DNA from: an uncultured Clostridium sp.
GTDB taxonomy: Bacteria; Bacillota; Clostridia; TANB77; CAG-508
Reading direction: 5' to 3'
DNA: 64,000 bases
NCBI GenBank assembly: GCA_947647595.1
Contig: CANSKZ010000005.1
Location: 53,569-117,568, forward strand
The notes under the pieces were generated by a model, which was not told the DNA's origin, searched no databases, and worked only from the letters and a program-made list of their open reading frames with translations. A program made the translations under genes and the position numbers. Shown one piece after another: positions 12,039-64,000 of the stretch. Position 1 is the stretch's first letter, and the number at the start of each line of letters is the position of its first letter.

Positions 12039-14424
12039 CTATTCTTCATTTTCAATTTCTTCCATTAAATTATCGTTCGTTTCTATATTATTAGATTCTA
12101 AATTTTGATTAGAATTCTCATTTCCTGTTTGATTTTCACTTTCCTCTGGAAGACTATTTTCTTTTTTAGTTTCCTCTTCCACAAAATTTGCAACCAGAAC
12201 ATCATTGGTTTCTTCTTGTGATTGCTTTATGTCTGGTATTGATTCTTCTGGCCTTTGATTGATTTCTGTTTTAACAGAATTCGCCGTATTTTTTACCGTA
12301 TCTTTTATTTTCTGCTTTGTGTTTGTATTTTCTACATTCTTTGGGGCATTTCCTTGATGAATTGTACAGATTTCTGGAGTGGTTCCTTTTATAAAATATT
12401 CGGTAAACGTATCTTGGCACCCACTATTGGCTACTTTTAAACTTTTTCGGCAAATTTTTAAATTTTCTACATTTTTAGCTTTTGCAAAATCACTATTCTT
12501 CAACTTTTTATGAATTTGGGTCATCACATTGGACCAAATGATGCCTGCTGGATTGTTTCCATGATAACGAATTGGCTCACTTAAATCAAATCCAAACCAC
12601 GTGACAGCTGTATAATAATTGGTAAATCCACAAAGCCAGCGGTCATAGTCTTCGTTTGTTGTTCCTGTTTTGGCTGCTACTTCCATTCCGGGAATCGAAC
12701 AATAAGTTGCTGTTCCGTTGTTTCCGACAACTGGTTCGGTTAACAACTGTTTTGTCACAAAAGCCACTGCTTCTGAAATAACGCGCCCGCTTTTTTGTTT
12801 GGAATTTAAAACGTTTTTTCCGCTGTTGTCTAGTATTTTGGTATAAAAAGTAGGTTCAATATAGACTCCATCGTTGGCAATCATAGCATACGCACCTGCC
12901 ATTTCTAAGGGCGATATGCCATTATCCAATCCTCCCAATGATAACGCTAAATTCTCGTCTTTTTCATTCAAGGTAGAAATACCCATTTTCTTCAAATATT
13001 GAATGGAAGTTGTTGGTGTGAGTTCTTCGATTATTTTGACAAAAGGAATATTTTGAGAAGATTCAACCGCACGTCTTACCGTGATTTTTCCTAAATAATC
13101 ATTATAATTAATGGGTGAATATTCTTCTTGATTGTAATCGATAAAAGTTGTTAAAGTATCCTCATAAGTACTAACTGGCGTGATGACTTTTTCAGCTAAG
13201 GCAGGAACCAAAACTGCCAATGGCTTACTACTAGAACCCGTTTGACGGATTGCTTGTGTGGCTCGATTAAATCCTCTGACTTCCTTTTTCTCGCCTAAAC
13301 CACCGTACGCATGCTAAAACCTTTCCTGTTTTATGGTCAATTATTACCATCGCTGCTTGGGATGTCATTTCTCCATTACTACTTTGTAGTTGATATTTCT
13401 TTTTGGAAAATTCATCTTCCATTTTTTCTTGTATTTCTGTATTTTGTGTGCTATAAATTTTGGCATTTGCCATGGATAAATAATTGGTTGCGAAATTTTT
13501 AGAAATGTTTTTTTGGCTCGATAAATCCGAAATCACTTCAAGCAATAGTGCATCTGTATGATAAGAATAAAGTCCGTTTCCTTCTGGATTGATTTCACCT
13601 TTTTGGAAATTGATTCCTTTTTCGACTTTGGCTAACGCACCATCATATTCCTCTTTTGTAATATTTTCTAATTCCAACATTTTGTTTAATACAATTTTGG
13701 TTCTTTTTTTGATTTTTTCTGTGTTGTCTTTTTCTTTATTAAACGGATTATACGCATTTGGTGCATGATTGATTCCTGCCAAAAAGGCACATTCTGCTAA
13801 ATCTAAATCAGATACGGTTTTGTCAAAATAGTAATTGGCTCCGCATTCAACACCGTATAAGTTTGGTCCAACATAAATGACATTTAGGTAACTTTCCAAG
13901 ATTTCGTCTTTATCCATGCACCATTCTAATTCAACAGCTTTGGTCCATTCTTTGACTTTTCTTGTAATGCTGTTGGCGTCGTCTCCTGTTAAATTTTTCA
14001 CTAATTGCTGGGTAATCGTGCTGGCTCCAAATGAAGCATTTCCAAAATGTATGACGTAAGAACCAATGGCTGCAGTGGTTCTTTTTATATCTACACCAAA
14101 GTGTTTGTAAAATCGTTCGTCTTCAATGGCAACATAGGCATTTTTTAGATTTTGTGGCATATCTTTTTCAAGCGAAACATTTTTGCGATTTTTCTCATTG
14201 CCAATTTCCGCAATGACATTTCCTTCCAAATCTAAAATCTGTGAAGGTTGATTGGCAATCATGGAAAGCGCAAGTTGTTGCCAAGTGTGAATGGACATTG
14301 CTGTTTTAATGGCAAACATTAGAATGACGATTATTAGAATGATACCGATTTTTCTTTTCCATTTTGATTTATTTTTGGTTTTCTTTTTTTGTTTTGTTTC
14401 AGGCTTATTTTTTAATTTGCTCAA
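12039..14424 (-). CDS. Class A penicillin-binding protein (PBP1A family: GT51 glycosyltransferase + transpeptidase), interrupted by one +1 break
   Basis: The N-terminal ORF 13267..14424 has GT51 motifs (EDERFYKHFGVD, STITQQLVKN). The C-terminal ORF 12039..13220 has KTGTT. The +1 frame read from ccg 13303..13305 gives GGLGEKKEVRGFNRATQAIRQTGSSSKP, containing the SxxK active site. Confidence 0.9.
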
Positions 14425-19872: not shown

Positions 19873-20577
19873 TTATTCCAACACGTTCAAAACATCATCC
19901 TGCTTCATTCCATTGAAATTGTAGAACGTATCTGGTATTTCACCAACGATTATTGCCTCAGTTAATAAAACTTGGGAAGCCACTTCTTTGCTAAAAGAAC
20001 CAATTGGTGTTAAAATGCCAATGGAACCATTTAATTCCAAATAAATTTTATGTAAGGTTTGGTTAATACCAACACTTTCAAATTGGGATTTTACTTGTGT
20101 CGTAATTGCTCCTGCCGTTTCTAGTTCAATCTCAAATTTGGGTCCAAAATTTTTCAAAATGCTTATCCCGCTGACACTTCCATAATTGATATAAACCATC
20201 GTAGTTGGCGTTTGGTCAATTCTGGTTTGAATATCGTTTGTAATTTTGCTAATAATTTGATTTAGCAAAACGGTATTGGCTTGCATTAAAGTAACTTGAC
20301 CTGCTTCGTTTTTTTCGATTTTAATAAAGTCACTGTATGTATAATAATTCATTCGATTTTCCACTTCTTCTTGTATAATATGAGTCGCCTTAGAACCTGC
20401 TGCGGTTTTGCAACTGGCTACAAAAATTGGATATGAGGCAAACACAAAACTAACAATCGACACAACAAAAAGCAAAAAAATCAGGTTCAAGCATAATTTA
20501 ATTGGATTTCTTTTTTTTGGTTTTGGCTTTTTTATCATTGGAATTCGTATTCTTTTTCTAGAATAAATTTTATCCAT
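19873..20577 (-). CDS. yunB: Sporulation protein YunB
   Basis: 234 aa. N-terminal TM helix, then INYGSVSG...GPKFEIELETAG...FESVGINQTLHKIYLEL..., which matches the YunB family. Confidence 0.7.
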   Translation of the reverse strand: MDKIYSRKRIRIPMIKKPKPKKRNPIKLCLNLIFLLFVVSIVSFVFASYPIFVASCKTAAGSKATHIIQEEVENRMNYYTYSDFIKIEKNEAGQVTLMQANTVLLNQIISKITNDIQTRIDQTPTTMVYINYGSVSGISILKNFGPKFEIELETAGAITTQVKSQFESVGINQTLHKIYLELNGSIGILTPIGSFSKEVASQVLLTEAIIVGEIPDTFYNFNGMKQDDVLNVLE

Positions 20578-20641
20578 GATTTGTTCTCCCTAAAAATAAT
20601 TGATATGGAAGAAGGGCAAGGATGTAAGCCTTGCCCTTATA

Positions 20642-22114
20642 TTATTTCATAATGTATAATTTTTCACCGACATTGATTTTTGCATTATCTTGTAAATTAT
20701 TCGTTTGAATGATACTATCCATAGTAACTTTAAAATCTCGTGCAATATTCCAAATCGTATCTCCATCTTTGACAAAATAAACTATCATCGCATAATCATT
20801 TTCCTCTTGACATTCTTCTTCTTCCACTTCATCAATCAGATGAATGGTTTTGTAATTGCTACTATTTGGTTTTAAGGCTAATTCAATATCACATACAACA
20901 TCTTCGTTATTTAATTTGAAATGTTTTTTGGTAAAATTAATTTCAATATCGTCTGTATGGCAATCGAGTTTTGCCATAAATGGAATTTTAGTCGTTTTGA
21001 CGCCTAGATGATTGCCTGTATCAAAATAAATATTAACAACACATTCTCCTTCGTAATTGGCGCCACTGCCCATTGGCGTTTTATTGGTGATGTTTGCCCT
21101 GCAATCTACATCATAAAGTGATCGAATATCTTCTACTAAAATATTTTCATTAATATTTACTATTTCCGTAGAAACTTCAGCATCGGTTTGTACTTCAATG
21201 GACTTTTGATTAAAGGTAATATTTTTATTAATTCCATACATATCTTGCACCAATTCAATGCTCTTTTTTTGATATACTTCACATGTCACTTCAAAATCAA
21301 TTTGACAACTAATTGTTTTCATTTCTTTGCTATTTGGCTTAAAATTCATATTGCGGACTTTATAATCCATTTGACAAATATCTTCATCGGTCACTTTTTC
21401 CATATCAATAAAATTCATAATGGGAACCGTTGCTTCACAATTACCGATTTTTCCTGTTTCCGTAATATATAGCATTTTGATGCTAACATCTGCTTTTGAC
21501 AACACTTTATTATAACTCATTTTATTTTCCATATTGCTAAGTGAAATATCACTTCTCAAAATATCAGAAATCGCTTCTGTTTCGTCAATACTAACATCCT
21601 CTTTTAGCGATGTTTTAATCGTATTGCTTGCTACAACCGTGTTTAAATTGACAGTTTCTTGTAGTTTTTCCACACCAGATAACATGTTCAAATTATCAAT
21701 ATACTCAATATTTTTACATTCAAAAAAGTTAAAACATAGTTTCAAATTCACGCATACACTAATTTTTCTCTCATTCAATATTTTCGTATCAACACTCACA
21801 ATTTCAATTCGATATTTGGTAGACATTTGACTGTTTATTCCAGCATCGTCAATCACATCCATGAAATCCAAAGTTGTTTGGATGCATTTGGTTTCTCCGT
21901 TATCCGATAAATAAATGATGTGGGCATCCATGTTTCCATCAAATCGATATTTTCCTTCTGTACATTCTTCTTTATAAATGTAGGGATTTGCATTAGTACC
22001 CATAATATTTACAATATCTGGTTTAGTATCTGGAACAATAATATCACCCTTCACTTCTATATTTTTGATTTTTTCCGTCATTTTTTTATGAATGGATAGC
22101 GTATTTTTTTCCAT
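20642..22114 (-). CDS. SPOCS (DUF3794) domain protein with C-terminal LysM
   Basis: C-terminal YFVKDGDTIWNIARDFKVTMDSIIQTNNL...GEKLYI is a LysM domain. The upstream repeats are SPOCS-like. The likely start is the ATG at 22114, preceded by AAGGAGGA. Confidence 0.65.
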   Translation of the reverse strand: MEKNTLSIHKKMTEKIKNIEVKGDIIVPDTKPDIVNIMGTNANPYIYKEECTEGKYRFDGNMDAHIIYLSDNGETKCIQTTLDFMDVIDDAGINSQMSTKYRIEIVSVDTKILNERKISVCVNLKLCFNFFECKNIEYIDNLNMLSGVEKLQETVNLNTVVASNTIKTSLKEDVSIDETEAISDILRSDISLSNMENKMSYNKVLSKADVSIKMLYITETGKIGNCEATVPIMNFIDMEKVTDEDICQMDYKVRNMNFKPNSKEMKTISCQIDFEVTCEVYQKKSIELVQDMYGINKNITFNQKSIEVQTDAEVSTEIVNINENILVEDIRSLYDVDCRANITNKTPMGSGANYEGECVVNIYFDTGNHLGVKTTKIPFMAKLDCHTDDIEINFTKKHFKLNNEDVVCDIELALKPNSSNYKTIHLIDEVEEEECQEENDYAMIVYFVKDGDTIWNIARDFKVTMDSIIQTNNLQDNAKINVGEKLYIMK

Positions 22115-22260
22115 AAAAAAAATCCTCCTTTTTGTTATTTTAAGTTTATATAACATTTATATGGAGGATTTTTCAAAAAAATACCTATTTTATTAAATTT
22201 CTAAAAATTTTTTAAAAGCGAGTGAAATTTTACTTGCAAAATTCCTCGTGCTTTTTATTT

Positions 22261-52059: not shown

Positions 52060-53445
52060 TTATGTCAAATTATTATTTTTGTTCGTTTTTATGTCATCTA
52101 ATATGAATTTCTTAAATAAATTTCCTCGCTCTTGAAAATTTTTAAAAAATCCATAACTTGAAGCTGCTGGAGATAATACACAAATCGTGTTTTTCTTCGT
52201 CACTTCCTTTGCAATTTTAACCGCTTCTTGCAAATTTTGTACTTTATATAATATCTTATTTTCCACATTTTTTAGAGCATCATAGATAATTTCACCAGTT
52301 TTTGGTAAACAAATAATGTGTTCGACTTCAGAATGTTTCAAAAAGTCAACTAATTCTTTTTGAGATACTCCTCTATCTTTTCCACCTACAATCAGCGTGT
52401 TTACGTTTTGTAAGGCTGTAATCGTATTAATGGTGGATTGTGGGATAGTGGCAATAGAATCGTTGTAATATTCAATAGAATCTATTTGGGCTACAAATTC
52501 CATGCGATGTTCTAACGGTTCAAAATTTTGAATGGTTTTGACAGCTTTTGCAAAGTCCAAATTCATGATATCACACACAGCTAAAACAAACATAATATTA
52601 TGAATATGGTGTATTCCTTTTAACTTCAGCTTTGTTCTTAAATCCATAACGCATACATTATTACAATATATGTCGTTTTTTTCTATCCATACCGAATTTT
52701 TTGTTTTTGGCTTGTTTTCCAAACTGACTGCATAGTCAGTTGTTTTAAAATCATACTTTTTTAAAAGTTCGTTGTCTGCATTATAAATTAAGTATTCTTC
52801 TTCTTTTTGAAAGTTAGTGATATTTAATTTAGCTTGTGCGTATTCTTCAACAGAAGTATAATGATCAAGATGTTCTTCATATAGATTTAGTAAAATTGCA
52901 ATATTGGGTGAATTTTTTACATATTGTAAACTGTGAGAGGATAATTCCAATACGATAATGCTATTGGGTTTCAAATTCTCAATTTCATCAAAAATCGGTT
53001 CTCCAATATTGCTCAATAAAAATACATCTTTGTCTTGATTTTTAAGTACTTGATAAAGAATACTACTGGTGGTACTTTTCCCTTTTGTTCCTGTCACACC
53101 AATTGTAAATACAGGAACAAATTCGAATAATAATTGAACTTGATTGGTTATTTTATTTTGAAAAGTTTTCGTATTTATATTTTTAAACGAAATTCCAGGC
53201 GTTTTTATAATTAAATCATATTCCTCTATACCATTTAAATAGCCTTCTCCCATACTGACTTCTAAATTAATATCCTCTAAAAATTCTGGATATTTTTCAA
53301 GCAAATCAGTGCTTTTGTCCGCCATAAAAAGTTCTTTTTCTGGAAAATTTTTTCTTAAAAATCGATAGGTTGATTTTCCTTCTACTCCTACGCCTAATAT
53401 CAATATCTTTTTATTTTCTAAAAATTCTAATAATTTTTCTAACAT
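52060..53445 (-). CDS. murD: Mur ligase, MurD family (possibly MurD2-type)
   Basis: 461 aa. GVTGTKGKSTT P-loop and Mur ligase middle and C domains. The N-terminal ILILGVGVEGKSTYRFL differs from the canonical MurD GLGKSG. Confidence 0.8.
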   Translation of the reverse strand: MLEKLLEFLENKKILILGVGVEGKSTYRFLRKNFPEKELFMADKSTDLLEKYPEFLEDINLEVSMGEGYLNGIEEYDLIIKTPGISFKNINTKTFQNKITNQVQLLFEFVPVFTIGVTGTKGKSTTSSILYQVLKNQDKDVFLLSNIGEPIFDEIENLKPNSIIVLELSSHSLQYVKNSPNIAILLNLYEEHLDHYTSVEEYAQAKLNITNFQKEEEYLIYNADNELLKKYDFKTTDYAVSLENKPKTKNSVWIEKNDIYCNNVCVMDLRTKLKLKGIHHIHNIMFVLAVCDIMNLDFAKAVKTIQNFEPLEHRMEFVAQIDSIEYYNDSIATIPQSTINTITALQNVNTLIVGGKDRGVSQKELVDFLKHSEVEHIICLPKTGEIIYDALKNVENKILYKVQNLQEAVKIAKEVTKKNTICVLSPAASSYGFFKNFQERGNLFKKFILDDIKTNKNNNLT

Positions 53446-54788
53446 TCAAAAATTTTTCCTCTCAAAATTTCATCAAATTCTTTGGGCAAATTATTATTTT
53501 GGTTATAATAATTTAAAAGATTAGAATCAAATTGTTCAAAATGTTCTTTGTAGTATTGTAATAAAAATGGCAATTTTCCATTTGTGTTTTGGATTGTTTT
53601 GGAAATAGCATATCTTACTTCTTCATATGTTCCAACGCATTCAAATGGTTTGTTTTCTGCATAGCCACAAAGTTCAATTAAGGTTTGAAGTAAATTTTCT
53701 TTTTCAAATAAATCTTCTCCAAAAATGGAAATTAATTTTTCTTTATATAAGAATGGGCTTAAAATAATAAATGGGAATAAACATTTTGGGCAATTACAAC
53801 ACCATTTCCATGGTTTGCTTTTACTTCCTAAATTGCAACTTTTAAAAATAGGATGATAGTCTTCTAATTGCGAAAATAATTTTGCGATTTGTAATTCATT
53901 AATTGGACGTAAAAAACTAAAATATTCTGGTCCATTGAAACAAATATATTGTTTCACATAAGTTCTAAAATCATTCTCAAATTCAATTGTTTTTGAATAT
54001 TGATGATTAATATTTTCTCCTTTAATATTGGATTCATTAGCACTGTCTTCATTGGATAACACAATATATCTTTTGCCAAGCGTAACTGCTGTAAAATACG
54101 TAATAAAAGCTAATAACGCAGAAAATGGTGTATGACCATTTAAAAAACCTTTTTGATTTAAATCTAATAAATTAGAATCGATTGTTCGATTGACTTCAAT
54201 GATTTCATTTTCCTCTAAACCAGCAATTTTAGCACACTTTTTAGAAACTTCTTCGAGATTCATACGAAAACCAAATCTTTTTTGCTTAGTTTCTTTCAAT
54301 AATTCTAATGTGACATTCGAATCTTTTCCTCCACCAATGGGAATGATAGCATCTGTTAGCGTTTCTGATAAAGTTTCTGTTTTGTATTCTTGCCCTTGTG
54401 TTATGATTTGCACAAAATTTTCTTGTGAAACTTGAATTTTGTTTTTGTATCGAAATTCACCAAGTCCCAAATAAATTAACTTTTTGAACCAATCAATTTG
54501 TTTTTGATTTAACTTCCCACAATTAATATAAAAATTTTTGCTACAGGTTGCTTTCCAATAGCTAATTGCTTCAATAATTCCAATATGAAAAGCAATATTT
54601 TGAACAATATTTTTGTTTAAGTAATGCCACTTAAAATCTTTTTTTAAAATTTTTAATGTTGGATGAAAGGTCGTTAAACCTTGTATTTCAAATTCATATT
54701 TTAAATAAATATTTTCTTCATCTTGTTCTATTTTGTAATTTTGATAAATAAATTTATCGTATTTTTCTCTTAGAATTTCATATTCCAT
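53439..54788 (-). CDS. Conserved protein with PP-loop-like motif, candidate MurL-type epimerase
   Basis: 449 aa. PIGGGKDSNVTLELL resembles an SGGKDS PP-loop. Its stop overlaps the murD-like start by 7 nt (translational coupling). Confidence 0.4.
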   Translation of the reverse strand: MEYEILREKYDKFIYQNYKIEQDEENIYLKYEFEIQGLTTFHPTLKILKKDFKWHYLNKNIVQNIAFHIGIIEAISYWKATCSKNFYINCGKLNQKQIDWFKKLIYLGLGEFRYKNKIQVSQENFVQIITQGQEYKTETLSETLTDAIIPIGGGKDSNVTLELLKETKQKRFGFRMNLEEVSKKCAKIAGLEENEIIEVNRTIDSNLLDLNQKGFLNGHTPFSALLAFITYFTAVTLGKRYIVLSNEDSANESNIKGENINHQYSKTIEFENDFRTYVKQYICFNGPEYFSFLRPINELQIAKLFSQLEDYHPIFKSCNLGSKSKPWKWCCNCPKCLFPFIILSPFLYKEKLISIFGEDLFEKENLLQTLIELCGYAENKPFECVGTYEEVRYAISKTIQNTNGKLPFLLQYYKEHFEQFDSNLLNYYNQNNNLPKEFDEILRGKIFEC

Positions 54789-54859: not shown

Positions 54860-54883
54860 TCCTTTTTTTGAGATTTCATAAAA

Positions 54884-54916
54884 ATACACCTCTGTTATTT
54901 TTAGAGGTGTATTTTT
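54884..54916 (-). terminator. Terminator after the spoIIID 3' segment
   Basis: aatacacctct / agaggtgtatt stem. On the minus strand it is followed by TTTTTAT. Confidence 0.6.
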
Positions 54917-54920
54917 CGTT

Positions 54921-55085
54921 TTAAGAAGCATTGGTTTTATGACTATATTTCATTTTGGTTGCCATTCCGCCTCGAATGTGCCTTTCTGCTTTGTTTTCAT
55001 CTAGCACTTTGCGTACTTCCATTGCTAAGGTGTAATTAATGTTGAGCAAACGTTGACTGACATCTTTATGTACCGACGTTACTAT
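54921..55085 (-). pseudogene. spoIIID: 3' segment of spoIIID (mother-cell transcription factor), severed from its 5' half by the inserted element
   Basis: The frame reads (I)VTSVHKDVSQRLLNINYTLAMEVRKVLDENKAERHIRGGMATKMKYSHKTNAS*. This matches the C-terminal half of SpoIIID (STVHKDL...RHLRGGEATKLKY). A TGA stop lies immediately upstream in that frame, and there is no N-terminal HTH half. Confidence 0.75.
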
Positions 55086-56616
55086 TCAGAACGGTCGGTG
55101 GATTGATTCCAATCTCGTTCAAAAGTTTTAATCTTACTTCAATATTTGCTTCGCTGTCAACTTCAATGACATCAATAATTGTTTTTAACATCGCATTTGT
55201 AATCGTTTCATTATTCAAGATGTCATCTACCGTGCTAATCGTTCTCGACAACTCTTTTTCCAAAACATCTTTTTCTTTGATTTCAGAAGTGATTAATTTG
55301 AGCTCCCTTTCTAGCCTTGCGATATCTTCATTTAATGGATTGGTATATTTCTTCAATTCTTGAATGTTAATCACTTCATTTTGAAACATTTCCATATACT
55401 TTTGTTTCTTAACCGTAATTTTTTCAATCTCTTGAAGTAAACTTTTCTCACTCCTTTCGTGATTTTCCCTTAATTTCGTGATTTTATCAAACTCTTTTTG
55501 TACTGATTTCATAAATTCCTTCTTATTGGAAATAATGTTTTTCAAATATTCTTTGATAGCATTTAGCAATTCTTCTTCATCAATGACAGTTGTATTAGGG
55601 CACGAACTAACACCCAGCGAATTTCTACCACTACAAACCCAGCGAATATATTCTTTACCATTTTCGGAATATTTCCTTTTGGTTCGTCGATACGAATATC
55701 CACAATGTTTGCAATAAATAAGTGTACTAAACACATAGCTTGTCTTTTCTCGTTTGCAATTCAACTTGAACTCTGTTGACCTTTGTGCCAAAATTTCTTG
55801 GGCTTTGTTGAATAATTCGTCAGATATAATTCGCATTTCTGGCTTTTCAACGACAATCCATTCTTCTTCTGGCAAGTCTTTTCTGGTCCCTGTAATGAAA
55901 TCCGTTACTTCGGATTTTTTGTTTGTTACTCTGCCTGTATAAATTGGATTTTTGAGCATTCTGACAATCGAAGTTTGCACCCATCTTGATTTTGTTTTTT
56001 TGGTGCGGATGCCTCGTTCATTTAATTCCCAAGCAATTTTTGTTGTTCCCATTCCTTTATAGACATAGTTTTCAAAAATTTCTTTGACAATTTTGGCTTC
56101 TTCTTCATTGATTTTTAGTGTATATCTTTCATCTGGCATTTTGTCATAGCCAAAAACGATGTTGGGAACTCGTCCTTTTTGGGCCGTAATGTCTTTTCCG
56201 AATTTTACCCTTTTGGACATATTGGCACTTTCTTGTTGAGCCATTGCGCCTAAAATCGTCAAAATAAATTCGGAGCCACCTTCCATAATTTCGCCATTGT
56301 TTAGGAAATCGACTTCGATTCCATAAGACTTCAATTCTCGAATGCTTTGCAATAAATCAACGGTGTTTCTAGCAAAACGGCTGACATCTTTTACAACTAC
56401 TTTTTCAAATTTTTTTGCTTTGGCATCTTGCATCATTGCCTGAAATTGTTTTCTGTGTTTGATTTGTTTTCCTGATATTCCTTCGTCTGCATATAACTTG
56501 TACAATTCGTATCCATTTTTCTTTGTGAATTCGTTGAAGAATTCGATTTGCTTTTCAAGCGAATCAATTTGGGCTTCTTTTTCGGTTGATACTCTACAAT
56601 AGGCTGCAATTTTCAT
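55066..56616 (-). CDS. Large serine recombinase (SpoIVCA-like)
   Basis: 516 aa. Resolvase catalytic N-terminus MKIAAYCRVSTEKE...VKDVSRFARN, recombinase domain, zinc ribbon CKHCGYSY...WVCSGR, C-terminal coiled coil. Confidence 0.93.
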   Translation of the reverse strand: MKIAAYCRVSTEKEAQIDSLEKQIEFFNEFTKKNGYELYKLYADEGISGKQIKHRKQFQAMMQDAKAKKFEKVVVKDVSRFARNTVDLLQSIRELKSYGIEVDFLNNGEIMEGGSEFILTILGAMAQQESANMSKRVKFGKDITAQKGRVPNIVFGYDKMPDERYTLKINEEEAKIVKEIFENYVYKGMGTTKIAWELNERGIRTKKTKSRWVQTSIVRMLKNPIYTGRVTNKKSEVTDFITGTRKDLPEEEWIVVEKPEMRIISDELFNKAQEILAQRSTEFKLNCKREKTSYVFSTLIYCKHCGYSYRRTKRKYSENGKEYIRWVCSGRNSLGVSSCPNTTVIDEEELLNAIKEYLKNIISNKKEFMKSVQKEFDKITKLRENHERSEKSLLQEIEKITVKKQKYMEMFQNEVINIQELKKYTNPLNEDIARLERELKLITSEIKEKDVLEKELSRTISTVDDILNNETITNAMLKTIIDVIEVDSEANIEVRLKLLNEIGINPPTVLNSNVGT

Positions 56617-56743
56617 GGTTTATTTTCTCCTTTTCTGTTGTTTCGGTTTCGTTCTGTTACATTGTAGCATATCTGTTGTGAAAAAGCAAGAAAAAACTAC
56701 TCTTTTTTAAGAATAGTTTTTTAATCCCTAGTGTTTCAAAAAA

Positions 56744-57625
56744 TTAAGATAAAAATTCCTTTACTATAAGTGGCAAATATGTCTCATTTTCATTTTTTAT
56801 TACTTTATCTGATAAACATGCTACAAATTTTAATGGAAAGGATTCTTCCTCGGTATTTGTAATATACTTAAAGGGACTATTTCTTATAGAATTTCTTACC
56901 TTGTCTTTTAAATAATTAGGCACTTGATTCATGAAATCATCAAAAAGTGAATCGTCAAAATCAAAACTTGCTAACAATTCTTCATCTTTTTGAATTACAG
57001 CCAAAAAAGTAAATTTACTATCACTTAATCTATATATATCATTAATATAACAATTAGAAAATTTTTGCAATATATCTTGAGTTATTCCTTGTTTTATGCA
57101 CCATAGTCCAAAATCATTTTTATAATTAAAAATATGAGGATTTATAAATGCTGCTGGACTTAAAAGTTCAAATACCTGCTCCCAATTTTTTTCACTTGCA
57201 TTTCCAAGATAAAAATGTAATAATGGCTCTTCTTTATCTACATCAAATATACTTATTTCTTTACCATTACATAAGACAAAACGTTTTATTTGTACTTTTC
57301 TATTAATTGCATAACTATAAGCTTGTTCAACATTTTTTCCCTTACAAATATTTTCTAGTGGAGATTTTGCTTCTATAATAAAAGCATTCTTACCTTTAAC
57401 TTTAATAAGATAATCTGGAATTATATCATTTTTAACATTTTTTGTTCCAAATCTGGTAAATGGATGCTCTAAATGTGGCCCTCTCACAATACAATTTGAT
57501 TTATCAAAAGCTGAATATCCTAGAATTTTTAACAGAGGTGCAATAATATCTTCTCTTACACCATCTTCATTATAACCTTCTGGTAAATTATTAAAATCTA
57601 TATTTTCAAATATGCTCATTTCCAT
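56744..57625 (-). CDS. PD-(D/E)XK nuclease-like protein with type I restriction HsdR N-terminal-type domain
   Basis: 293 aa. GVREDIIAPLLKILGY ... IPDYLI ... FIIEAKSP is the HSDR_N pattern (D...EAK). Confidence 0.6.
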   Translation of the reverse strand: MEMSIFENIDFNNLPEGYNEDGVREDIIAPLLKILGYSAFDKSNCIVRGPHLEHPFTRFGTKNVKNDIIPDYLIKVKGKNAFIIEAKSPLENICKGKNVEQAYSYAINRKVQIKRFVLCNGKEISIFDVDKEEPLLHFYLGNASEKNWEQVFELLSPAAFINPHIFNYKNDFGLWCIKQGITQDILQKFSNCYINDIYRLSDSKFTFLAVIQKDEELLASFDFDDSLFDDFMNQVPNYLKDKVRNSIRNSPFKYITNTEEESFPLKFVACLSDKVIKNENETYLPLIVKEFLS

Positions 57626-57685
57626 TGCTCCTTTATTAATCTATTTTTATTAATACATCTAAAATTACAAATTTTAACATTTATA

Positions 57686-58517
57686 TTAATATTTTAACAC
57701 TTCTTCTTTACATAATTTACCATCTTCGTAATATTCTAAATTTACTCGTTGTTCTTTTATATTTATATCATAAAAGATTCCTATTGCATACATGCAAATA
57801 TGTCTGGGTAATTCTTCAAAATTTATTTCATTATAGTACGAATTTTTAGTCATATATTCTAATCGTTCTCTATCTTCTTTTCTCTTTTTGCTATTGGTAG
57901 ATTTTTTCATCTCTATAGCAATTAAATTATCCTGTTGCTTATTATGACCTCTACTATGTACTATAAGATCACATTCTATTCTGATTATTTTCAATTCATT
58001 ATTTATTATTGTCTTCATCATATGGTTATTTCTGTCATAATCTGTATCTGCCCAATATCCATTTACCCCGCATTTCTTTCATGGTATCTCTCAAATAATT
58101 TGCTAGATTTTGACAAAGATTTCTTTCCGAAATATTACGATTAATATTTTCTTTTTCTTCTTTTAAAAATTTTCTATTTGCATTTTTAAAAATTTTATAA
58201 GCTATAGTCCTATTCTTTTTTACATTAGTATTATATTCAGCAAGTCTTTTCTTCAATTCTTCTCTGTCCAACCTTAATTGTTCTCTTCCTAAATCAGTAA
58301 TTATATATCTTCCTCTATCAATCTTTTTTATCATTCCTAAATTGCATAATCTAGTTATAGCAAATCCAATTGTAAATTGAAATTTACTTTCTTCCTCTTT
58401 GGTCAGTAGCAATATCCTTCTTTGTTCGTTTATCATCGATTGTCTTGAATATTCTATGTTATTTCTCATATTATTTAATATTTCAATAGATAAATCTTCT
58501 ACTTTTGGTATAGCCAT
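57686..58517 (-). CDS. Mrr_N winged-helix + PD-(D/E)XK-like nuclease protein, interrupted by one +1 break
   Basis: ORF 58035..58517 has an Mrr N-terminal-like wHTH. ORF 57686..58021 has CDLIVHSRG...NLIAIEMKK. They join at an in-frame CGG (ccg 58068..58070): KEM-G-VNGYWADTDYDRNNHMMKTII. Confidence 0.65.
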
Positions 58518-58527
58518 AATTACTCCT

Positions 58528-59931
58528 TTATTTACTACTAATATATTTCTGATTCTTACTTTTCGGCTTATCTGGTATTGTCATTTTCATTTTTCCACTA
58601 TCTACTAATGGTTTCAAATAATTTCTTTTAAATCGATCCACACTTTTATACCCACAATATTCCGCAATTTCTTTTGCCGTTCTTTCTTCTGTGCAAAATT
58701 GTAGTATTTTTTCTTGCGTTTTATCATACGTCTTTTCATACGTCTTTTCATACGTCTTTTTTTCTTCATTTTTACTATTTTGTGTTAAATCATACAACTC
58801 TTCATCCGTCTTCCTATAAAAAATAACACTAAATCCATTTTTCTTTATTTTAAATTCCACTTTTACATTTTCTTTTTGACATTCTTCATAAATTCTTTTA
58901 AAACCAGAACCCCATTTTTCAATATCTTTCGATAAATACAAAGTATTTGCAATCAACGGATTTCGTGGCATAGAACCTTCTTTGCCTTCAATGAAATCCT
59001 CTGGCGTATATCCTTCTGGAAATTCGCCTGGATTAAAAATTTCAATTCTATCCTTATAAATTGCAATTTCATTGCTTTTCGGATTTTTGAAATCTCTGTG
59101 TATAATCGAATTGATTAAAGCCTCTCTTATCGCTTCGATTGGGATTTCTGGGATTTCTATTCGTTCCATACTTCCACTTTTAAAATTAACAGGCCATTTT
59201 ATATTTTTCCTAATGTAACCTTCGCCAATTTCAATCAATTCAAAAATATTTCCAAAAACTTGGTCAATATCCAAAAAAGTTAGTTTCGTTTCTGTTGCAA
59301 AAATAGCCATTTGCATTTCGAGTTTTGCTTCCTTAGCAAACAAAATATATCCTGCATTCAATAATTCGCTATTTTTATTGATAAAAGACAATTTTTTCAA
59401 GATTTCCTCTTTGTTTGTATATGGAAAATTGATTCTTTTTGCTTCTCTACCTTTTTCAATAAAGCCTTTTAGCAATTCTTCATCAATATCTTGCATTGTA
59501 TAATCAGAAACTTTATTTTCCCATTTACCGACTTCGTTCTCATCTTTTAAAATGATATTCCTAATTTCCTTCATTGACAATTGTCTATCTTCATCGCCAA
59601 CTCTCATGTAAGCTCGTCCAAATGCTAAATAAGGAATATCGTCGCCTTCAAACTCAACTAATATACAGTCTTTATCATTCAACTTAATTTTATTCACGGT
59701 TGGATATATTTTCGGTTCTATATTTTCCGATATTGCCTTTGAAACATCTCGTATTGTCTTTGTTGAAACTTCTTGTCCAATAATCTCGCCATTATCTTTT
59801 ATTCCAAAATACAATTTTCCGTTCTGATGCTTATTCAATATCGAAACAATTGAAATAATTCCTTCTTTTAGTTCGCCAGTTGTTTTCTTGAATTCAATCA
59901 CTTCGTTTTCTAAAAAATTGATATTTGCCAT
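58528..59931 (-). CDS. AlbA_2/Schlafen-like DNA-binding domain + ATPase-like domain + wHTH protein
   Basis: 467 aa. ENEVIEFKKTTGELKEGI...NGKLYFGIKDNGEIIGQ is the AlbA_2 (divergent AAA_4) signature, with a C-terminal HTH. It contains a 3x12-nt in-frame tandem repeat. Confidence 0.65.
   Translation of the reverse strand: MANINFLENEVIEFKKTTGELKEGIISIVSILNKHQNGKLYFGIKDNGEIIGQEVSTKTIRDVSKAISENIEPKIYPTVNKIKLNDKDCILVEFEGDDIPYLAFGRAYMRVGDEDRQLSMKEIRNIILKDENEVGKWENKVSDYTMQDIDEELLKGFIEKGREAKRINFPYTNKEEILKKLSFINKNSELLNAGYILFAKEAKLEMQMAIFATETKLTFLDIDQVFGNIFELIEIGEGYIRKNIKWPVNFKSGSMERIEIPEIPIEAIREALINSIIHRDFKNPKSNEIAIYKDRIEIFNPGEFPEGYTPEDFIEGKEGSMPRNPLIANTLYLSKDIEKWGSGFKRIYEECQKENVKVEFKIKKNGFSVIFYRKTDEELYDLTQNSKNEEKKTYEKTYEKTYDKTQEKILQFCTEERTAKEIAEYCGYKSVDRFKRNYLKPLVDSGKMKMTIPDKPKSKNQKYISSK
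58725..58760. repeat. 3 x 12-nt perfect tandem repeat (catacgtctttt)
   Basis: Read directly. It encodes the (EKTY)3-like KTYEKTYEKTYDKT in the 467-aa protein. Confidence 0.9.
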
Positions 59932-60009
59932 AAACTTTTCTCCTATAAAATTATATTTTATATTGTAACATACTTTTTTTAATATTAGTAGCCTTTTTTC
60001 AAAATTTTA

Positions 60010-60222
60010 TCATTCCCATTCCTCTTCTTCCTCAATTTCTCGCTTCTTCTTATAACCAAAAACAACCTTTTCTTCCTTTTCAGCCAAATTATAAGCAAGC
60101 ACACTTGCCATAGCTTGTACAATTTGCTCTTCTGTATTAGGATTCACAAAAGTTATATTTAGCCCTCTTTTTTCCTTCAAATGCCTCTCCTGCCTTTCCT
60201 TTAATTGTATTTTTTCTAACAA
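60010..60222 (-). CDS. Hypothetical small protein
   Basis: 70-aa ORF with an acidic C-terminus. No homology recognised. Confidence 0.35.
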   Translation of the reverse strand: MLEKIQLKERQERHLKEKRGLNITFVNPNTEEQIVQAMASVLAYNLAEKEEKVVFGYKKKREIEEEEEWE

Positions 60223-60373
60223 AAAATATTACAATTTATTTTTCTATATATTAAGAACACGAAAAATTTTTTAAATGTTGAATTTTTTCAAAATTTTTTT
60301 AATTTTTTATAAAAACAGACCACTTCATTAAAGTAATCTGCTTAAAATAACTTAAAAGGCATTTGATATACTC

Positions 60374-60731
60374 TCATTTCTTCTCATAAAATGTCTCGAG
60401 CAAAATTCGCATTGCATCACTTATTCCGTTGTTTATAAACCTGCTCAGCATAAAAGCAATTTTTTCTCTCTACATTTTTTTGATATTCCTCAAAAATCGT
60501 TTCAAACTTTTTTCTCAAATCCTCATTCCCATGACAAACCAATTTTATTTGTTTTATCAATTCATTCTCATGTTTACTTACAATATCTTGAAATACCTCA
60601 AAATTTCTTTTAAATTGTTTTGTCAATATTTTCCCTTTATTTTGAAAATCATCATACAAAACACTTAAAATACTTTCTTCCTTTTTCATAAATATTTCTT
60701 CTAACATTTTCTCTTCCATAACTTTCTCCAC
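60374..60731 (-). CDS. Hypothetical protein (104 aa in the 0-frame, 118 aa if the CGG at 60426..60428 is skipped)
   Basis: The 0-frame ends ...VYKQ-R-NK*. The +1 reading gives ...VYKQ-G-ISDAMRILLETFYEKK* (stop at 60374..60376). Confidence 0.45.
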
Positions 60732-61097
60732 CTTTCCTTAATTTGTGTTTGATGTTAACTCTGTGTAGAAAATTAGTCAAGTCTTTTTCAAGATTTATTA
60801 TGTTTATTCCAATTTTTCTTCTTGCCTAATAGAAAAATAAATACAATGATTTTACTCCATGTAGCTCAAAAATTGCCTTAGGCAATTTTGCAGGATCAGG
60901 GTGACTACTCGTTACCCGTCAAACAGCCTAAAAGCGTGGCTTTTAGCAGGGTGCTATTGAAAAATCAAGTCATCAATCAGACGTCTCCACTTTTCTCTAC
61001 TTTATTCAACATTTTCGTTCTACCATCCATACAAAATCCCTCATTTATTCACACCACAATCGATTTTGTGGCATTTTATATCATAAATAGGTATTGC

Positions 61098-61863
61098 TCA
61101 TAATTTAAAGATAAATATATATTCATGTGCTAACAAATAAAAATCTCTGTTTACATTCTGACTCCAATAACCTGTCCTTTTGCAATTATGCTGTTCTTTT
61201 ATAATTATCTCTTTTAAAATGAAACCTGTTTTGATAAAAATATTCATGATATAAAAACCTAATGGAATAACATTTTTATTTTTTCTAATGTCTCCTATTA
61301 AAACTGCACAATACTTATTTCTCTTTAAGATTCTAAAACATTCTTTTGAAAATAACTTCATTTGATCTAAAAACTCATTTAATTCTAATCTTGATATGTC
61401 TTCTTTAATATCCTTACTATATTTTATAATATTTGCATATGGTGGATGTGCAAATAAAAAGTCTATACAATTATCTGGTACTATTCCTTTTAAATTTGTG
61501 GAATCTGCTCTTATTAATTTAGGTTCGTATAAATTGTTATTTTTGAAATTGATTCGTGCTTTTGCTATTCTAAGAGCATTGCTATTTACATCAATTCCGT
61601 ACTCCTTTTCTATTTAGTAACTTTGTTTCTATCATTGTCGTACCACTTCCACAAAATGTATCTAATACAATTTCTCCTTCTTTTGTATATTTTAAAATTA
61701 AGTTTCTAGGAACTTGTGGTGGACAATTACCTCTGTAATCTCCTTTGTGTGTTGCCCAGTTTCCTCTTTCTTCAAAATTCCATATTGTTGTATCTTCTAA
61801 TTCAAAATGTTCTGGTTTATCTTTCAAATTCATTCCTCCTATCTTAAAATACAAAAGGGACAA
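61098..61863 (-). CDS. DNA methyltransferase (N6-A/N4-C type), interrupted by one +1 break
   Basis: ORF 61591..61863 has motif I (DTFCGSGTT). Reading +1 from ccg 61597..61599 gives GIDVNSNALRIAKARINF...DFLFAHPPYANII (motif IV), continuous with ORF 61098..61361. Confidence 0.8.
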
Positions 61864-61904
61864 CTAATAAAAGTTGCCCCCACAATCTTTTTTATTTATC
61901 TATA

Positions 61905-62432
61905 TTAATCTTCTTCTGGTACTGGTAATCCCAATTTCTTTAGTGGTATGTATTCAAAATAATATTGACATCTTACACTTATGATATAATCTAACACATC
62001 TTTATACTGTGGCTTTTTAAACCAGTCACTTAGTAAATAAACATATTCCACTTCAATATTAGCTCTTGATAAAAGTTTTTGATACTGTTTCTTCTTAAAA
62101 TCACATGTTTGCAATTTCTCATCAACGGAACCTGCAACTTGTTGAAACTTACATTCTATAATAAATAAAGTATTATCAATTATGACATAAATACAATCAT
62201 CTGGTAATAATTGTTTTGATAAAATTTCTTTCCAATTTATATCATATTCTTCTAAAAATTTATAAAATTGATGTTTCTTAAATACTCTCGCTACTAATTC
62301 ATCCCTATAATATACCTTATCTTTTTCTACTTTATAACCTTTTTGTTTATTCAAAAAAGTTGCTAAATCTGTCTTTCCTTCAAATGCTAAACCTGTTAAG
62401 GTATTAGCTCCTCCTATTCCATCTTTTATCAT
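61905..62432 (-). CDS. Small PD-(D/E)XK restriction endonuclease candidate
   Basis: 175 aa. PDDCIYVIIDNTLFIIECKFQ fits the D-Xn-E-X-K pattern. It is sandwiched between methyltransferase genes and overlaps the upstream one by 4 nt. Confidence 0.6.
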   Translation of the reverse strand: MIKDGIGGANTLTGLAFEGKTDLATFLNKQKGYKVEKDKVYYRDELVARVFKKHQFYKFLEEYDINWKEILSKQLLPDDCIYVIIDNTLFIIECKFQQVAGSVDEKLQTCDFKKKQYQKLLSRANIEVEYVYLLSDWFKKPQYKDVLDYIISVRCQYYFEYIPLKKLGLPVPEED

Positions 62433-63215
62433 TTCATTTCCTCCTTTATTTCTTCATATCTTCTTATCGATAAATCCAAATACTCTTTTTCTCTTTCTAT
62501 TCCAATATAATTTCTTCCTAACTTATATGCTGCAATTCCTGTTGTTCCACTTCCACTGAAAGGATCTAAAACTATATCATTTTCATCTGTAGATGTTAGT
62601 ATTATTCTCTCTAATATTTCTAATGGTTTCTGTGTTGGATGTTTACCACATTTCTTTTCTGATGGTTTTGTTAAACTTGTCGTCCAAACATCTTTCATCT
62701 GCTTTCCATTATTGATTTCTTTCATCAATTCATAATTAAACTTATATTTACATTTCTCTATATCTTTTCTTGCCCAAATAATCGTTTCTGTTGAATGTGT
62801 AAATGTTTTACAAGCTAAGTTAGGTGGCGGATTTGTTTTCTGCCAAGTTATATTGTTTATTATTTTAAAACCTTCCTCTTCCAGTGCCATACCGATTGAA
62901 TAAATATTGTGTAATGTTCCACTTATCCAAATTGTTCCATTATCCTTCAAAATTCTATAACATTCTTTTATCCACTTTTTATTAAATTTATGTTTATATT
63001 TCAATGAATCCGATTCATCCCATTTGCCTTTATTTACGGATACCATTTTTCCACCGCCTACAGGTTATTCCATCATTGGATAAAAAATATGGTGGATCGG
63101 CAAATATTGTATCAATTGATTTATTTTCAAACTTTTTTAATACTTTAAATATATCACCTTTTATTAATTTGAAATGTTCCTGATTATAATAGTATTTTCC
63201 TGTATACATTATCAC
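62429..63215 (-). CDS. DNA methyltransferase (DpnA-like N6-A/N4-C type), interrupted by one +1 break
   Basis: ORF 63030..63215 has the FADPPY motif. Skipping the C at ccg 63054..63056 gives ITCR-G-GKMVSVNKGKWDE..., continuous with ORF 62429..63046 (DPFSGSGTT motif I). Confidence 0.85.
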
Positions 63216-63221
63216 ACTCCA

Positions 63222-64000
63222 TTATACATCATAATTGGTTACTAATATTTCTGATATCTTTCCTCTTCCATTTGAATTTGCATTTATCATTCTACTTGCC
63301 TGTATTTCATCTATATGAAAACCTTGATATATGTTATCAAAAAATGTATCCTCTTTGTTGATATTTTTAGGATTTGAATTACTTAGCATTAGCTTGGCGT
63401 TTCGTTCATTTAGATTTCGATAAAATACTGCCAACTCTTTTTGATTATCATCATTAAAATCTTCTTTCGTATAAGATGTAAAGCCAGACGTTACATTTAG
63501 TGGTCTGTATGGTGGATCAAAATACACAAATGTATTTTCTGTTACATATTCCATACTTCTACTATAATCTCCATACTGAAATTGAACATTTTGGATTAAT
63601 TTTGATAAATTTCTTAAATTTTCTTCATCACATATAGTAGGATTTTTATAACTTCCAACTGGAACATTAAATTTCCCAGCTTTATTCACTCGATATAATC
63701 CATTAAAGCAAGTCCTGTTCAAGTATATAAATTGTACTGCCCTTTGAACATTTTGCTCATTTTCTTTTAATATGTAATTGTTATATTTATCTCTTATTCT
63801 ATAAAAATAGTCTTTTCTTTCTTCCTGTCCTAACTCCAAATATTGCGTTTCCATTTGCTTTAAGTTTGTTATCAATTCTTCTACATTATTTTTAATAACA
63901 TGATAAGAATTAATTAAATCCATATTGATATCAAATGCATATGCTTCCTGCACCTTATATTTTTGCAATATATCAATTAACACTGCTCCACCACCAACAA
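63222..64000 (-). CDS. Dam-type (D12 class) N6-adenine DNA methyltransferase, 5' end beyond the window
   Basis: YFDPPYRPL motif IV. The frame stays open to the window edge, where it reads VGGGAVLIDIL (FxGxG motif I region). Confidence 0.85.
   Translation of the reverse strand, partial: VGGGAVLIDILQKYKVQEAYAFDINMDLINSYHVIKNNVEELITNLKQMETQYLELGQEERKDYFYRIRDKYNNYILKENEQNVQRAVQFIYLNRTCFNGLYRVNKAGKFNVPVGSYKNPTICDEENLRNLSKLIQNVQFQYGDYSRSMEYVTENTFVYFDPPYRPLNVTSGFTSYTKEDFNDDNQKELAVFYRNLNERNAKLMLSNSNPKNINKEDTFFDNIYQGFHIDEIQASRMINANSNGRGKISEILVTNYDV

Follow-up and report, generated by a model that had tools for sequence, protein, structure and literature searches.

The sporulation gene spoIIID is split by an element with a large serine recombinase in an uncultured Clostridium sp. 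and its gut relatives

A 64,000-nt stretch of an uncultured Clostridium sp. genome (GCA_947647595.1, contig CANSKZ010000005.1, positions 53,569 to 117,568; hereafter the window) was analyzed. The results supported the conclusion that the sporulation gene spoIIID is split there by an integrated element, which carries at its edge a gene for a large serine recombinase (LSR), beside the 3' fragment of spoIIID. We consider it likely that an element of about 14 kb was inserted in spoIIID by its LSR, that its excision is aided by a recombination directionality factor (RDF) and that spoIIID is rejoined in the mother cell. Removal, in the mother cell only, of elements that split sporulation genes is a classic programmed DNA rearrangement. 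Such elements have been studied so far in a handful of cultured Bacillus and Clostridium strains, mostly in late genes. SpoIIID is the first dedicated mother-cell transcription factor downstream of sigma-E.

A 3' part of spoIIID adjoins a large serine recombinase gene

A minus-strand frame at 55085..54921, IVTSVHKDVSQRLLNINYTLAMEVRKVLDENKAERHIRGGMATKMKYSHKTNAS plus a stop codon (also given as IVTSVHKDVSQRL...RHIRGGMATKMKYSHKTNAS plus stop), is preceded by a TGA at 55088..55086. The frame matched the SpoIIID family of Pfam, PF12116, over profile positions 35-81/82 (E 2.3e-20; 72.9 bits, cut-off 27), and its identity as SpoIIID is far beyond chance. The last 20 nt of a 516-aa LSR open reading frame (ORF) overlap it on the same (minus) strand. 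A preliminary description of this DNA, made from the letters alone, had read the frame in this way, as a C-terminal part of SpoIIID that follows a TGA and overlaps a 516-aa recombinase gene, and the ORFs and the Pfam match agree with it. When full-length SpoIIID was used as a tblastn query, only residues 35-79 were matched, and neither an N-terminal half nor a second copy of spoIIID was found in the 64-kb window.

The closest intact homologue, P0002, has 87 aa and is 94% identical over the fragment. It is encoded on contig L003 directly upstream of murL and a murD-like gene, and is thus the uninterrupted spoIIID for which a check at the syntenic position near murD had been suggested. Homology between this relative and the window starts exactly at 55073; therefore, the foreign DNA extends from 55074 to beyond 64000 and measures at least 8.9 kb, in line with the element of at least 9 kb to the right that had been proposed. 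Judged by the Pfam match, the tblastn match to residues 35-79 and the homology to L003, the spoIIID 3' part at 54921..55073 (minus strand; VHKDVSQRL...KYSHKTNAS and a stop) is host-derived from within a 14-bp core onward.

The fragment also has its own intrinsic terminator, as the preliminary description had stated. RNA folding placed it at 54874..54916 (minus strand), with a 14-bp stem, a 9-nt loop and a T-run. The hairpin (about 54916..54880) has a folding energy of -16.9 kcal/mol and a z-score of -7.5, and 0 of 200 shuffled sequences folded equally well. A simple consensus terminator scan missed it because of the 9-nt loop.

The 516-aa protein (55066..56616, minus strand) is, by its domain content, a large serine recombinase. 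The catalytic Resolvase domain (PF00239; residues 3-149, E 1.3e-34) is followed by the C-terminal Recombinase domain (PF07508; 171-279, E 5.4e-26) and a zinc ribbon (Zn_ribbon_recom, PF13408; 296-359, E 7.2e-13). The N-terminus, as read from the sequence (MKIAAYCRVST), holds the conserved RVS(T) catalytic-serine motif, and residues 11-503 aligned with the solved SPbeta SprA/YokA structures 9dxh and 9dxd (E 2.8e-13). A coiled coil at about residues 370-470 is suggested by heptad-rich, charged sequence. The stop codon of the gene, TAA, lies inside the core of the attR site described below.

The same codons are interrupted in relatives

The LSR was sought in one genome per species from 185,579 species. 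Relatives were found in 157 genomes, so that at least 157 species-representative genomes carry one, and 80 of these (87-99% identical) were kept for detail. All are metagenome-assembled genomes of uncultured gut Bacillota (labelled Clostridia bacterium or Clostridium sp.), and one is a closed chromosome of 1.70 Mb. A spoIIID 3' fragment directly follows the LSR gene, at the same codon, in 77 of the 80. In the remaining three, the locus is at a contig end (L074), in a tandem array (L077) or decayed (L046). A collection of proteins likewise contained many independent N-terminal fragments that end in ..SKSTVHKDVT.. and foreign residues, and many C-terminal fragments in which foreign residues precede ..VTSVHKDVS..; thus, the breakpoint in spoIIID is recurrent.

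Twenty-three elements were complete, with a 5' fragment on the same strand no more than 10 kb upstream, and they measured 4,658-11,210 bp. In all 23, the cores at the two ends are in register, and in-silico deletion between them yields an uninterrupted SpoIIID reading frame. Six of 10 SpoIIID proteins rejoined in this way are identical to intact proteins in public assemblies, where they occur on 204, 65, 52, 8, 7 and 4 contigs.

The nearest relatives of the window's element, L007 and L094, share 94% DNA identity with window positions 58768..64000, and their LSR is 98.6% identical. In L094, a metagenome contig, the cores of attL (7631) and attR (21517) delimit an element of 13,886 bp, and the contig has a spoIIID 5' half in the orientation of the 3' half. 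By extrapolation from L094, the spoIIID 5' half of the window's genome would be expected about 4.9 kb beyond position 64000. Exact matches to proteins of the window led to a 2.8-kb contig for a 175-aa protein, to no contig for the LSR and to an internal 5-kb contig for the 56-aa protein described below. It would probably take the form MKG.SIEERAIKLAQYIIDTKDTVRGAA.KFG.SKSTVH.., and the expected attL would read ..AGTACN-GTACAYANNGANGT-AACAC-N5-AACGGT...

Natural empty sites were found as well. Two loci with an empty site, L107 and L108, share 99.2-99.4% identity with the occupied locus L053 across a downstream flank of about 4.1 kb, and at the core the two alignments overlap by 19 nt. Therefore, the element is present in some conspecific genomes and absent from others, and the junction is exactly the predicted one. 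The 5' half in L094, the 23 in-frame rejoinings and these empty sites bear out the proposal of a split gene that can be rejoined. The outcome that had been named as its refutation, a dead remnant, was not seen in the relatives apart from the decayed L046.

Two unusual loci were noted. At L077:11540-11620, two related elements stand in tandem inside spoIIID; an attP-like junction (P arm, core, P' arm) lies after the first LSR gene and is followed by the left end of a second, different element. The decayed copy at L046:7993-11687 retains the 5' half and the LSR gene, lacks the 56-aa gene described below, attR and the 3' fragment, and has an inserted fragment of an insertion sequence (IS)-type transposase; it illustrates a true dead end.

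Attachment sites and the predicted crossover

The 14-bp core GTACATAAAGATGT (55060..55073, minus strand) is common to attR in the window, to attL and to attB, as seen in an alignment with the attB of L003 and the attL of L002 and in the 23 attL/attR pairs. As aligned in L003, the window and L002 it reads GTACATAA(A/G)GATGT, and each junction is element-specific on one side. The core of the 23 complete elements is GTACAYAARGAYGT. The element-derived (P) arm of the window's attR (55074..55095, minus strand) consists of ACCGTT and 16 nt (CTGAATAGTAACGTCG). This matches the geometry of attR in the relatives exactly, with ACCGTT at 55095..55090, 16 nt, and the core at 55073..55060. Across the family, the conserved element arms are ..TCTACCGTT-N16 upstream of the attR core and AACAC-N5-AACGGTAGA downstream of the attL core. 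Att sites had been left to be defined by the preliminary description; attR is now defined in the window, and attL and attR in the 23 relatives and L094, while the window's own attL would be outside the window.

The attP reconstructed from these arms, ..ACCGTT-N16-GTACAYAARGAYGT-N10-AACGGT.., is an imperfect palindrome. Its inverted arms, ACCGTT and AACGGT, are 40 nt apart and center on core positions 4-5 (CA), so it has the short length (about 40-50 bp) and the imperfect dyad symmetry of LSR att sites. From core position 8 on, the attL sequences often depart from those of attR (for example, in codons for VHTE, VHTD and VHME). The exchange therefore falls within GTACAYA, and the crossover is probably at the CA dinucleotide of core positions 4-5. 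A search of 2.9 million viral contigs for the attP pattern gave 0 matches and, thus, no evidence there of carriage by phages or of captured free circles. Among the 99 loci, the pattern was found only at the tandem junction of L077.

The left ends of the elements showed a further feature (L094:7631-7759; L015, L016, L029, L045, L053 and others). In 24 of 28, the spoIIID 5' half runs in frame across attL and ends in a conserved tail of about 38 codons (..TLKNGRK.GQVIPESIEIKKVFLAEKNPVVKLGLVIK and a stop). Variation in the tail is mostly at third codon positions (entropy 0.95, compared to 0.59 and 0.52), which suggests that a chimeric protein of SpoIIID(1-43) and the tail is probably made from the spoIIID promoter before excision. 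Some elements have an in-frame 24-nt palindromic insert in this region.

A 56-aa acidic protein accompanies the recombinase

Only two genes are common to all 23 complete elements, the LSR gene and a gene for an acidic orphan protein of 56 aa (MKEKRGLNITFVNPNTEEQIVQAMASVLAYNLAEKEEKVVFGYKKKREIEEEEEWE; 60010..60180, minus strand), which is a candidate RDF by its co-occurrence with the LSR. It starts with TTG after AGGAGAGG, and the 56-aa window-encoded entry P0241 agrees with this start. The gene was found in 23/23 complete elements and in 74 of 88 LSR loci, and L027 is the only locus in which it is not on the strand of the LSR gene; the loci without it mostly have short flanks. Just 147 homologues were present among 5.8 billion proteins, and neither a Pfam domain nor a match to a named protein was obtained. 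The AlphaFold2 model has two helices at moderate confidence (predicted local distance difference test score 72), and Foldseek returned no PDB match for the predicted fold, which speaks neither for nor against an RDF role. The protein is a lead as the best candidate RDF, since its size, its charge and its strict linkage to the LSR are like those of known LSR RDFs.

Promoter-like blocks of the LSR and the 56-aa gene

The promoter-like region of the LSR gene (56647..56689, minus strand) reads TTGCTT-17 nt-TACAAT, with a TG that makes an extended -10. Alignment of 73 distinct upstream sequences gave a consensus of a terminator hairpin, TTG(CTT/AAA), 17 nt, TGnTA(A/C)AAT and a nearly invariant leader, TGTAACAGAACGAAA. 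This promoter appears to be of the sigma-A type and vegetative or constitutive. The hairpin at 56691..56722 (minus strand; -12.4 kcal/mol, z -3.65) resembles a terminator, was found in most aligned LSR loci and probably insulates the LSR gene from the cargo genes upstream. A generic sigma-70 scan was tried for promoter typing and was rejected, as its 28 matches against 31.6 expected are uninformative in an AT-rich window (31% G+C).

The leader (56647-56661, minus strand) begins just after the -10 and agrees with the SpoIIID box of C. difficile, KRTAACARK, at 8 of 9 positions (PMC5025042). It could be a site for feedback by SpoIIID or for autoregulation by the recombinase. The leader also has GTAACA in common with the element arm of attR.

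A second block, GTAATATT-13 nt-AATACAAT, lies upstream of the 56-aa gene (60204..60232, minus strand). In 56 distinct upstream regions from the family, it consists of GTAATATT, 13-14 nt and AATA(C/G)(A/T)AT, followed by a Shine-Dalgarno sequence, in surroundings that are otherwise unrelated. In the subgroup of the window, the -10 together with the bases that follow it (AATACAATTAAA) has the same sequence as the -10 region in the promoter of host spoIIID. An alignment of 29 distinct upstream regions showed strong conservation of this host promoter, GTTCTAATACAACCC-N7-GAATACAATTAAAC. In B. subtilis and C. difficile, spoIIID is sigma-E-dependent and expressed in the mother cell (ATA-N16-CATATATA) (PMC3789822).

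Cargo of the element

The cargo (56744..64000, minus strand) continues past the window and was assigned from Pfam and PADLOC matches and from the 94% identity of its distal part to L007/L094. It comprises an HSDR_N-type nuclease fragment, a 111-aa ORF, an Mrr_N protein, a Schlafen/AlbA_2-HATPase_c_4 protein, a 104-aa ORF, two N6_N4 DNA methyltransferases (each in two pieces), a PD-(D/E)XK protein and a D12 (Dam-type) methyltransferase whose gene is cut by the window's end. PADLOC gave type II methyltransferase and pAgo-associated-like matches. With its methyltransferases, nuclease fragments and Schlafen/AlbA_2 protein, the cargo is defence-like as judged by domain matches. The cargo of L094 additionally includes a TOTE-type primase-helicase and a PDC-S01 candidate. 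Phage structural, packaging and lysis genes were not among the Pfam and PADLOC matches of the window cargo or L094.

Other genes vary among the complete elements. A MobV (Mob_Pre) relaxase gene is present in 14 of the 23, and a Mob_Pre homologue was found neither in the part of the element in the window nor in the full 13.9-kb L094, so the relaxase expected of an integrative mobilizable element (IME) was not seen in these two. Schlafen/AlbA_2-type proteins are encoded in 6/23. A protein of about 158 aa (MIIEDGKFYFIKDEFFDVFKDYGLM..; for example, L103:16395-16871 and L045) is encoded just upstream of the LSR gene in 13/23 and is absent from the window; it had no Pfam or PADLOC match. A ToxN/AbiQ-like label considered for this protein was dropped, as Pfam and PADLOC gave nothing.

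Both N6_N4 methyltransferase genes in the window are in two pieces. The one at 62429-63215 (minus strand) has a +1 frameshift (an extra G in AGGCGG) that divides it into ORFs of 61 aa and 205 aa. The same gene is split in L001, L007 and L094; therefore, the split was inherited within this element lineage. The other (61098-61863, minus strand) is in pieces of 90 aa and 87 aa about 230 nt apart, as it is in L094.

Neighbouring host genes

Directly downstream of spoIIID, a murL-like epimerase gene overlaps a murD ligase gene (52060-54788, minus strand), and the pair has its own near-consensus promoter. The murL-like gene matched NF041275 with 252 bits, under the 700-bit cut-off of that model. The same pair follows the intact spoIIID of L003. 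Pairing of murL with murD has been described for Xanthomonadales, where L-Glu is added and then epimerized; the host here is a low-G+C gut Bacillota. The window also has intact copies of two sporulation genes, sipL (with SPOCS and LysM domains) and yunB, at 19873-22156 (minus strand), and cotF, yabG, veg, sipL and yunB are found near spoIIID in relatives. In L107, which has an intact spoIIID, the gene order is cotF-spoIIID-yabG-veg-sipL-yunB. A PBP1A-family penicillin-binding protein is encoded by two adjacent ORFs at 12039-14424 (minus strand); the glycosyltransferase part occupies 14424..13267, the transpeptidase part 13220..12039. A frameshift, a pseudogene or a gene that is truly split may explain this.

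Proposed mechanism and alternative explanations

As in skin-like elements, the break is inside the ORF of a gene that is a mother-cell gene in B. subtilis and C. difficile. Of the element of roughly 14 kb, the window holds the right-hand 8.9 kb. Comparison of the loci shows its integration, in which the LSR recombined attP with the identical 14-bp stretch of spoIIID (attB), at the codons for STVHKDV in the helix-turn-helix region. For excision, the LSR and an element-encoded RDF would recombine attL with attR; the element would leave as a circle and the 87-aa frame would be restored. The outcome of this step was obtained in silico and is seen in the natural empty sites, and its actors are those that we infer. 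By analogy with skin, skinCd, SPbeta and gin, the LSR would be made constitutively from its sigma-A-type promoter. The small factor would be confined to the early mother cell, where sigma-E RNA polymerase would transcribe its gene with no need for SpoIIID. Its control would have to be independent of SpoIIID because SpoIIID is the product of the gene being rebuilt. It is plausible that excision would need sigma-E but not SpoIIID, which would resolve the regulatory ordering puzzle raised in the preliminary description. spoIIID would be rebuilt in the terminally differentiating mother cell, and the forespore chromosome would retain the element. In addition, the family is spread by horizontal transfer; many members have a MobV relaxase, and most of the cargo consists of defence genes.

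Several observations weigh against this proposal. The spoIIID 5' half of this particular genome falls outside the window, which itself holds the 3' part only; both halves, joining in frame, were seen in the 23 complete relatives and L094. The -35 of the block upstream of the 56-aa gene fits the host spoIIID promoter poorly. The octamer AATACAAT occurs 20 times in the AT-rich window and is thus common, so the conserved block can be said to resemble a sigma-E promoter, and sigma-E control is a hypothesis. The RDF role of the 56-aa protein is suggested by co-occurrence, size and charge, with no homology or fold match to a known RDF. L046 shows that such an element can decay. None of the hosts is known to be cultured, spore formation by them is presumed, and excision specific to the sporulating mother cell is a proposal made by analogy. 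Finally, the intact state of the split halves was considered as proof of selection for rejoining and was rejected, since the LSR is more conserved than the flanks and the insertions may be recent. The case for rejoining rests instead on the prevalence of the elements in hosts that keep sporulation genes, on the conserved module of LSR and small protein, and on the behavior of all elements of this kind studied so far.

An alternative is that the element is an ordinary IME that uses spoIIID as a conserved site dispensable in growth and is excised for transfer, so that carriers would be sporulation-defective or would sporulate after stochastic loss. Several observations are in its favour. Besides the MobV relaxase genes of the 14 elements, the defence cargo is typical of mobile islands, the LSR promoter looks constitutive, and occupied and empty sites occur within one species. 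When the window is compared with L006 and L008-L010, LSR identity is 97-99%, whereas the adjacent MurL and MurD are only 70-75% identical (MurL 72-75%), which indicates recent horizontal spread; at most other loci, even synteny differs, yet the LSR is at least 87% identical. Therefore, the elements also move horizontally, and together with the relaxases, the L077 tandem and the occupied/empty polymorphism, this comparison shows a family that is actively spreading. However, the elements occur in 157 or more species representatives, and wherever the two halves can be seen they are undamaged; this is difficult to square with a lasting knockout of a key mother-cell regulator in hosts that keep cotF, yabG, sipL and yunB. 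The missing relaxase in the visible parts of the window's element and of L094, and the conserved promoter-like block that the small protein has to itself, also argue against this explanation, and excision is developmental for every LSR element in a mother-cell gene that has been studied by experiment (PMC4191935, PMC5595907, PMC5025042). We therefore regard a purely mobilizable element as unlikely, and the two explanations are not mutually exclusive.

Another possible explanation is a reversible switch of the active-lysogeny type, as with the Listeria comK prophage, in which the element would be excised and reintegrated in growing or stationary cells and would set the sporulating fraction. The apparently constitutive LSR, the two alleles within a species and the repeated integration activity seen in the L077 tandem are compatible with it, as is the growth-phase-dependent heterogeneity of excision of the "yin" element in yabG of C. 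botulinum (PMC10747680). But a replication or maintenance module for the excised circle was not found in the parts seen, attP was absent from the viral contigs, and the L077 junction was its only occurrence among the 99 loci, which makes such a switch improbable. It is also conceivable that the copy in this genome is a dead remnant, in which the 5' half or attL was lost and the function of spoIIID is gone or supplied elsewhere. That the 5' half is not in the window, and that L046 decayed in such a manner, would fit this; nevertheless, it would surprise us greatly, given a 3' fragment without frameshift or stop that is close to intact P0002, an attR arm and core that match the family exactly, intact LSR and 56-aa genes, and the 5' half and attL of the closely related L094.

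Comparison with known systems

In skinCd of C. difficile, the LSR CD1231 is constitutive, from a sigma-A-type promoter, and excision is gated by a sigma-E- and SpoIIID-dependent RDF, CD1234, a small acidic protein of 72 aa and isoelectric point 5.5 (PMC5025042). The element described here is similar in having its LSR at the edge of an element that splits the gene of a mother-cell regulator, in the sigma-A-type recombinase promoter and in the small acidic protein as the likely control point (72 aa for CD1234 and 56 aa for the candidate here). It differs in its target, which is spoIIID rather than sigK, and in that the candidate factor cannot need SpoIIID, whereas CD1234 needs both sigma-E and SpoIIID. 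Also unlike CD1234, the 56-aa protein is an orphan without a match among named proteins or solved structures, and the system here is known from sequence alone.

The skin and SPbeta elements of B. subtilis, which split sigK and spsM, respectively, also use an LSR (SpoIVCA; SprA, with SprB) to rejoin a mother-cell gene. There, too, the LSR gene lies beside one gene fragment and the halves join in frame at a short shared core; for SPbeta, the likeness extends to the full-length alignment of the window's LSR with SprA. The two B. subtilis elements are (defective) prophages, skin of 48 kb and SPbeta of 134 kb. The elements here, in contrast, measure 4.7-14 kb; phage structural genes were not found in the parts seen, and a MobV relaxase is frequent. 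Unlike what is proposed for the LSR gene here, spoIVCA of B. subtilis is itself sigma-E- and SpoIIID-dependent (PMC5025042, PMC6957869). The gin element in gerE of Bacillus cereus ATCC 10987 is closer in kind, as a small non-prophage element in the gene of a small mother-cell DNA-binding regulator, with a recombinase and a small accessory gene as its core (PMC5595907). However, its target and host group are different, and the family here has variable defence cargo, mobilization genes and at least 157 host species.

The IMEs of Bacillota that combine a serine integrase with MobV resemble the family in their small size, an LSR at one end, accessory cargo, Mob_Pre (in 14/23 of the relatives) and recent interspecies transfer, and the element in the window and L094 differ from them in having no relaxase in the parts seen. 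Integration in a developmental gene, its in-frame restoration and a small accessory protein are a hallmark of sporulation intervening elements and not of generic IMEs.

The preliminary description did not know of spoIIID as a target of this kind, and this point needs correction, since there is one earlier mention. For Ruminiclostridium cellulolyticum H10, Galperin et al. noted that spoIIID (Ccel_3110/Ccel_3179) contains a skin-like element of 64.7 kb, with a SpoIVCA-like LSR of 511 aa, Ccel_3111, beside the 5' fragment on the opposite strand; the case takes up one sentence and a row of a supplementary table, without further analysis (bioRxiv 10.1101/2022.02.25.481979). The target gene is the same, and, judged by the fragment sizes (126 nt and 144 nt), the break is close to the codons interrupted here. 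That element is about 65 kb, with the LSR at the 5' fragment, whereas those here are 4.7-14 kb, with the LSR at the 3' fragment and in the same orientation. The targets named by Abe 2014, Abe 2017, Suzuki 2019 and the 2023 yabG paper are sigK, spsM, spoVFB, spoVR, gerE and yabG, and not spoIIID. Phage phi6013 of C. pasteurianum was considered as a precedent and rejected, because it encodes a spoIIID homologue and does not interrupt spoIIID. No description of the spoIIID-element family reported here was found in the literature, with subscription-only papers outside the search. It is a large, previously undescribed family within the known class of LSR-borne elements that intervene in sporulation genes, with a one-line precedent for its target.

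Significance

spoIIID stands one step above the late targets in the mother-cell cascade, and SpoIIID itself takes part in triggering skin excision in B. subtilis and C. difficile. An element that splits spoIIID must therefore be triggered without SpoIIID and would delay everything downstream. The split is not an isolated oddity, since insertions of one closely related LSR family are found at identical codons in 157 or more species-level genomes, all from uncultured gut bacteria, with both occupied and empty alleles. Annotation and surveys of sporulation in gut metagenomes would score the carriers as spoIIID-negative or as having a pseudogene, though the gene is probably restorable. The data also offer well-defined att sites, natural pairs of alleles and, with the LSR and the 56-aa protein, a minimal set of genes, and the LSR with its 14-bp-core att sites is a candidate for the serine-integrase toolbox.

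A bolder proposal, which we put forward tentatively as possible rather than probable, is that this single, horizontally spreading family places spoIIID under a DNA-rearrangement checkpoint in well over 100 gut Bacillota species. The checkpoint would be tied to the sigma-E stage of the host through the acidic factor, read from a sigma-E-type promoter, and through the conserved chimera (SpoIIID residues 1-43 and ..IPESIEIKKVFLAEKNPVVKLGLVIK), made as transcription from the spoIIID promoter enters the left end of the element. The rebuilt SpoIIID might shut off the LSR through the leader that resembles a SpoIIID box, TGTAACAGA. If this is true, the timing of sporulation in these uncultured gut species, and perhaps its frequency, would be set by a mobile element.

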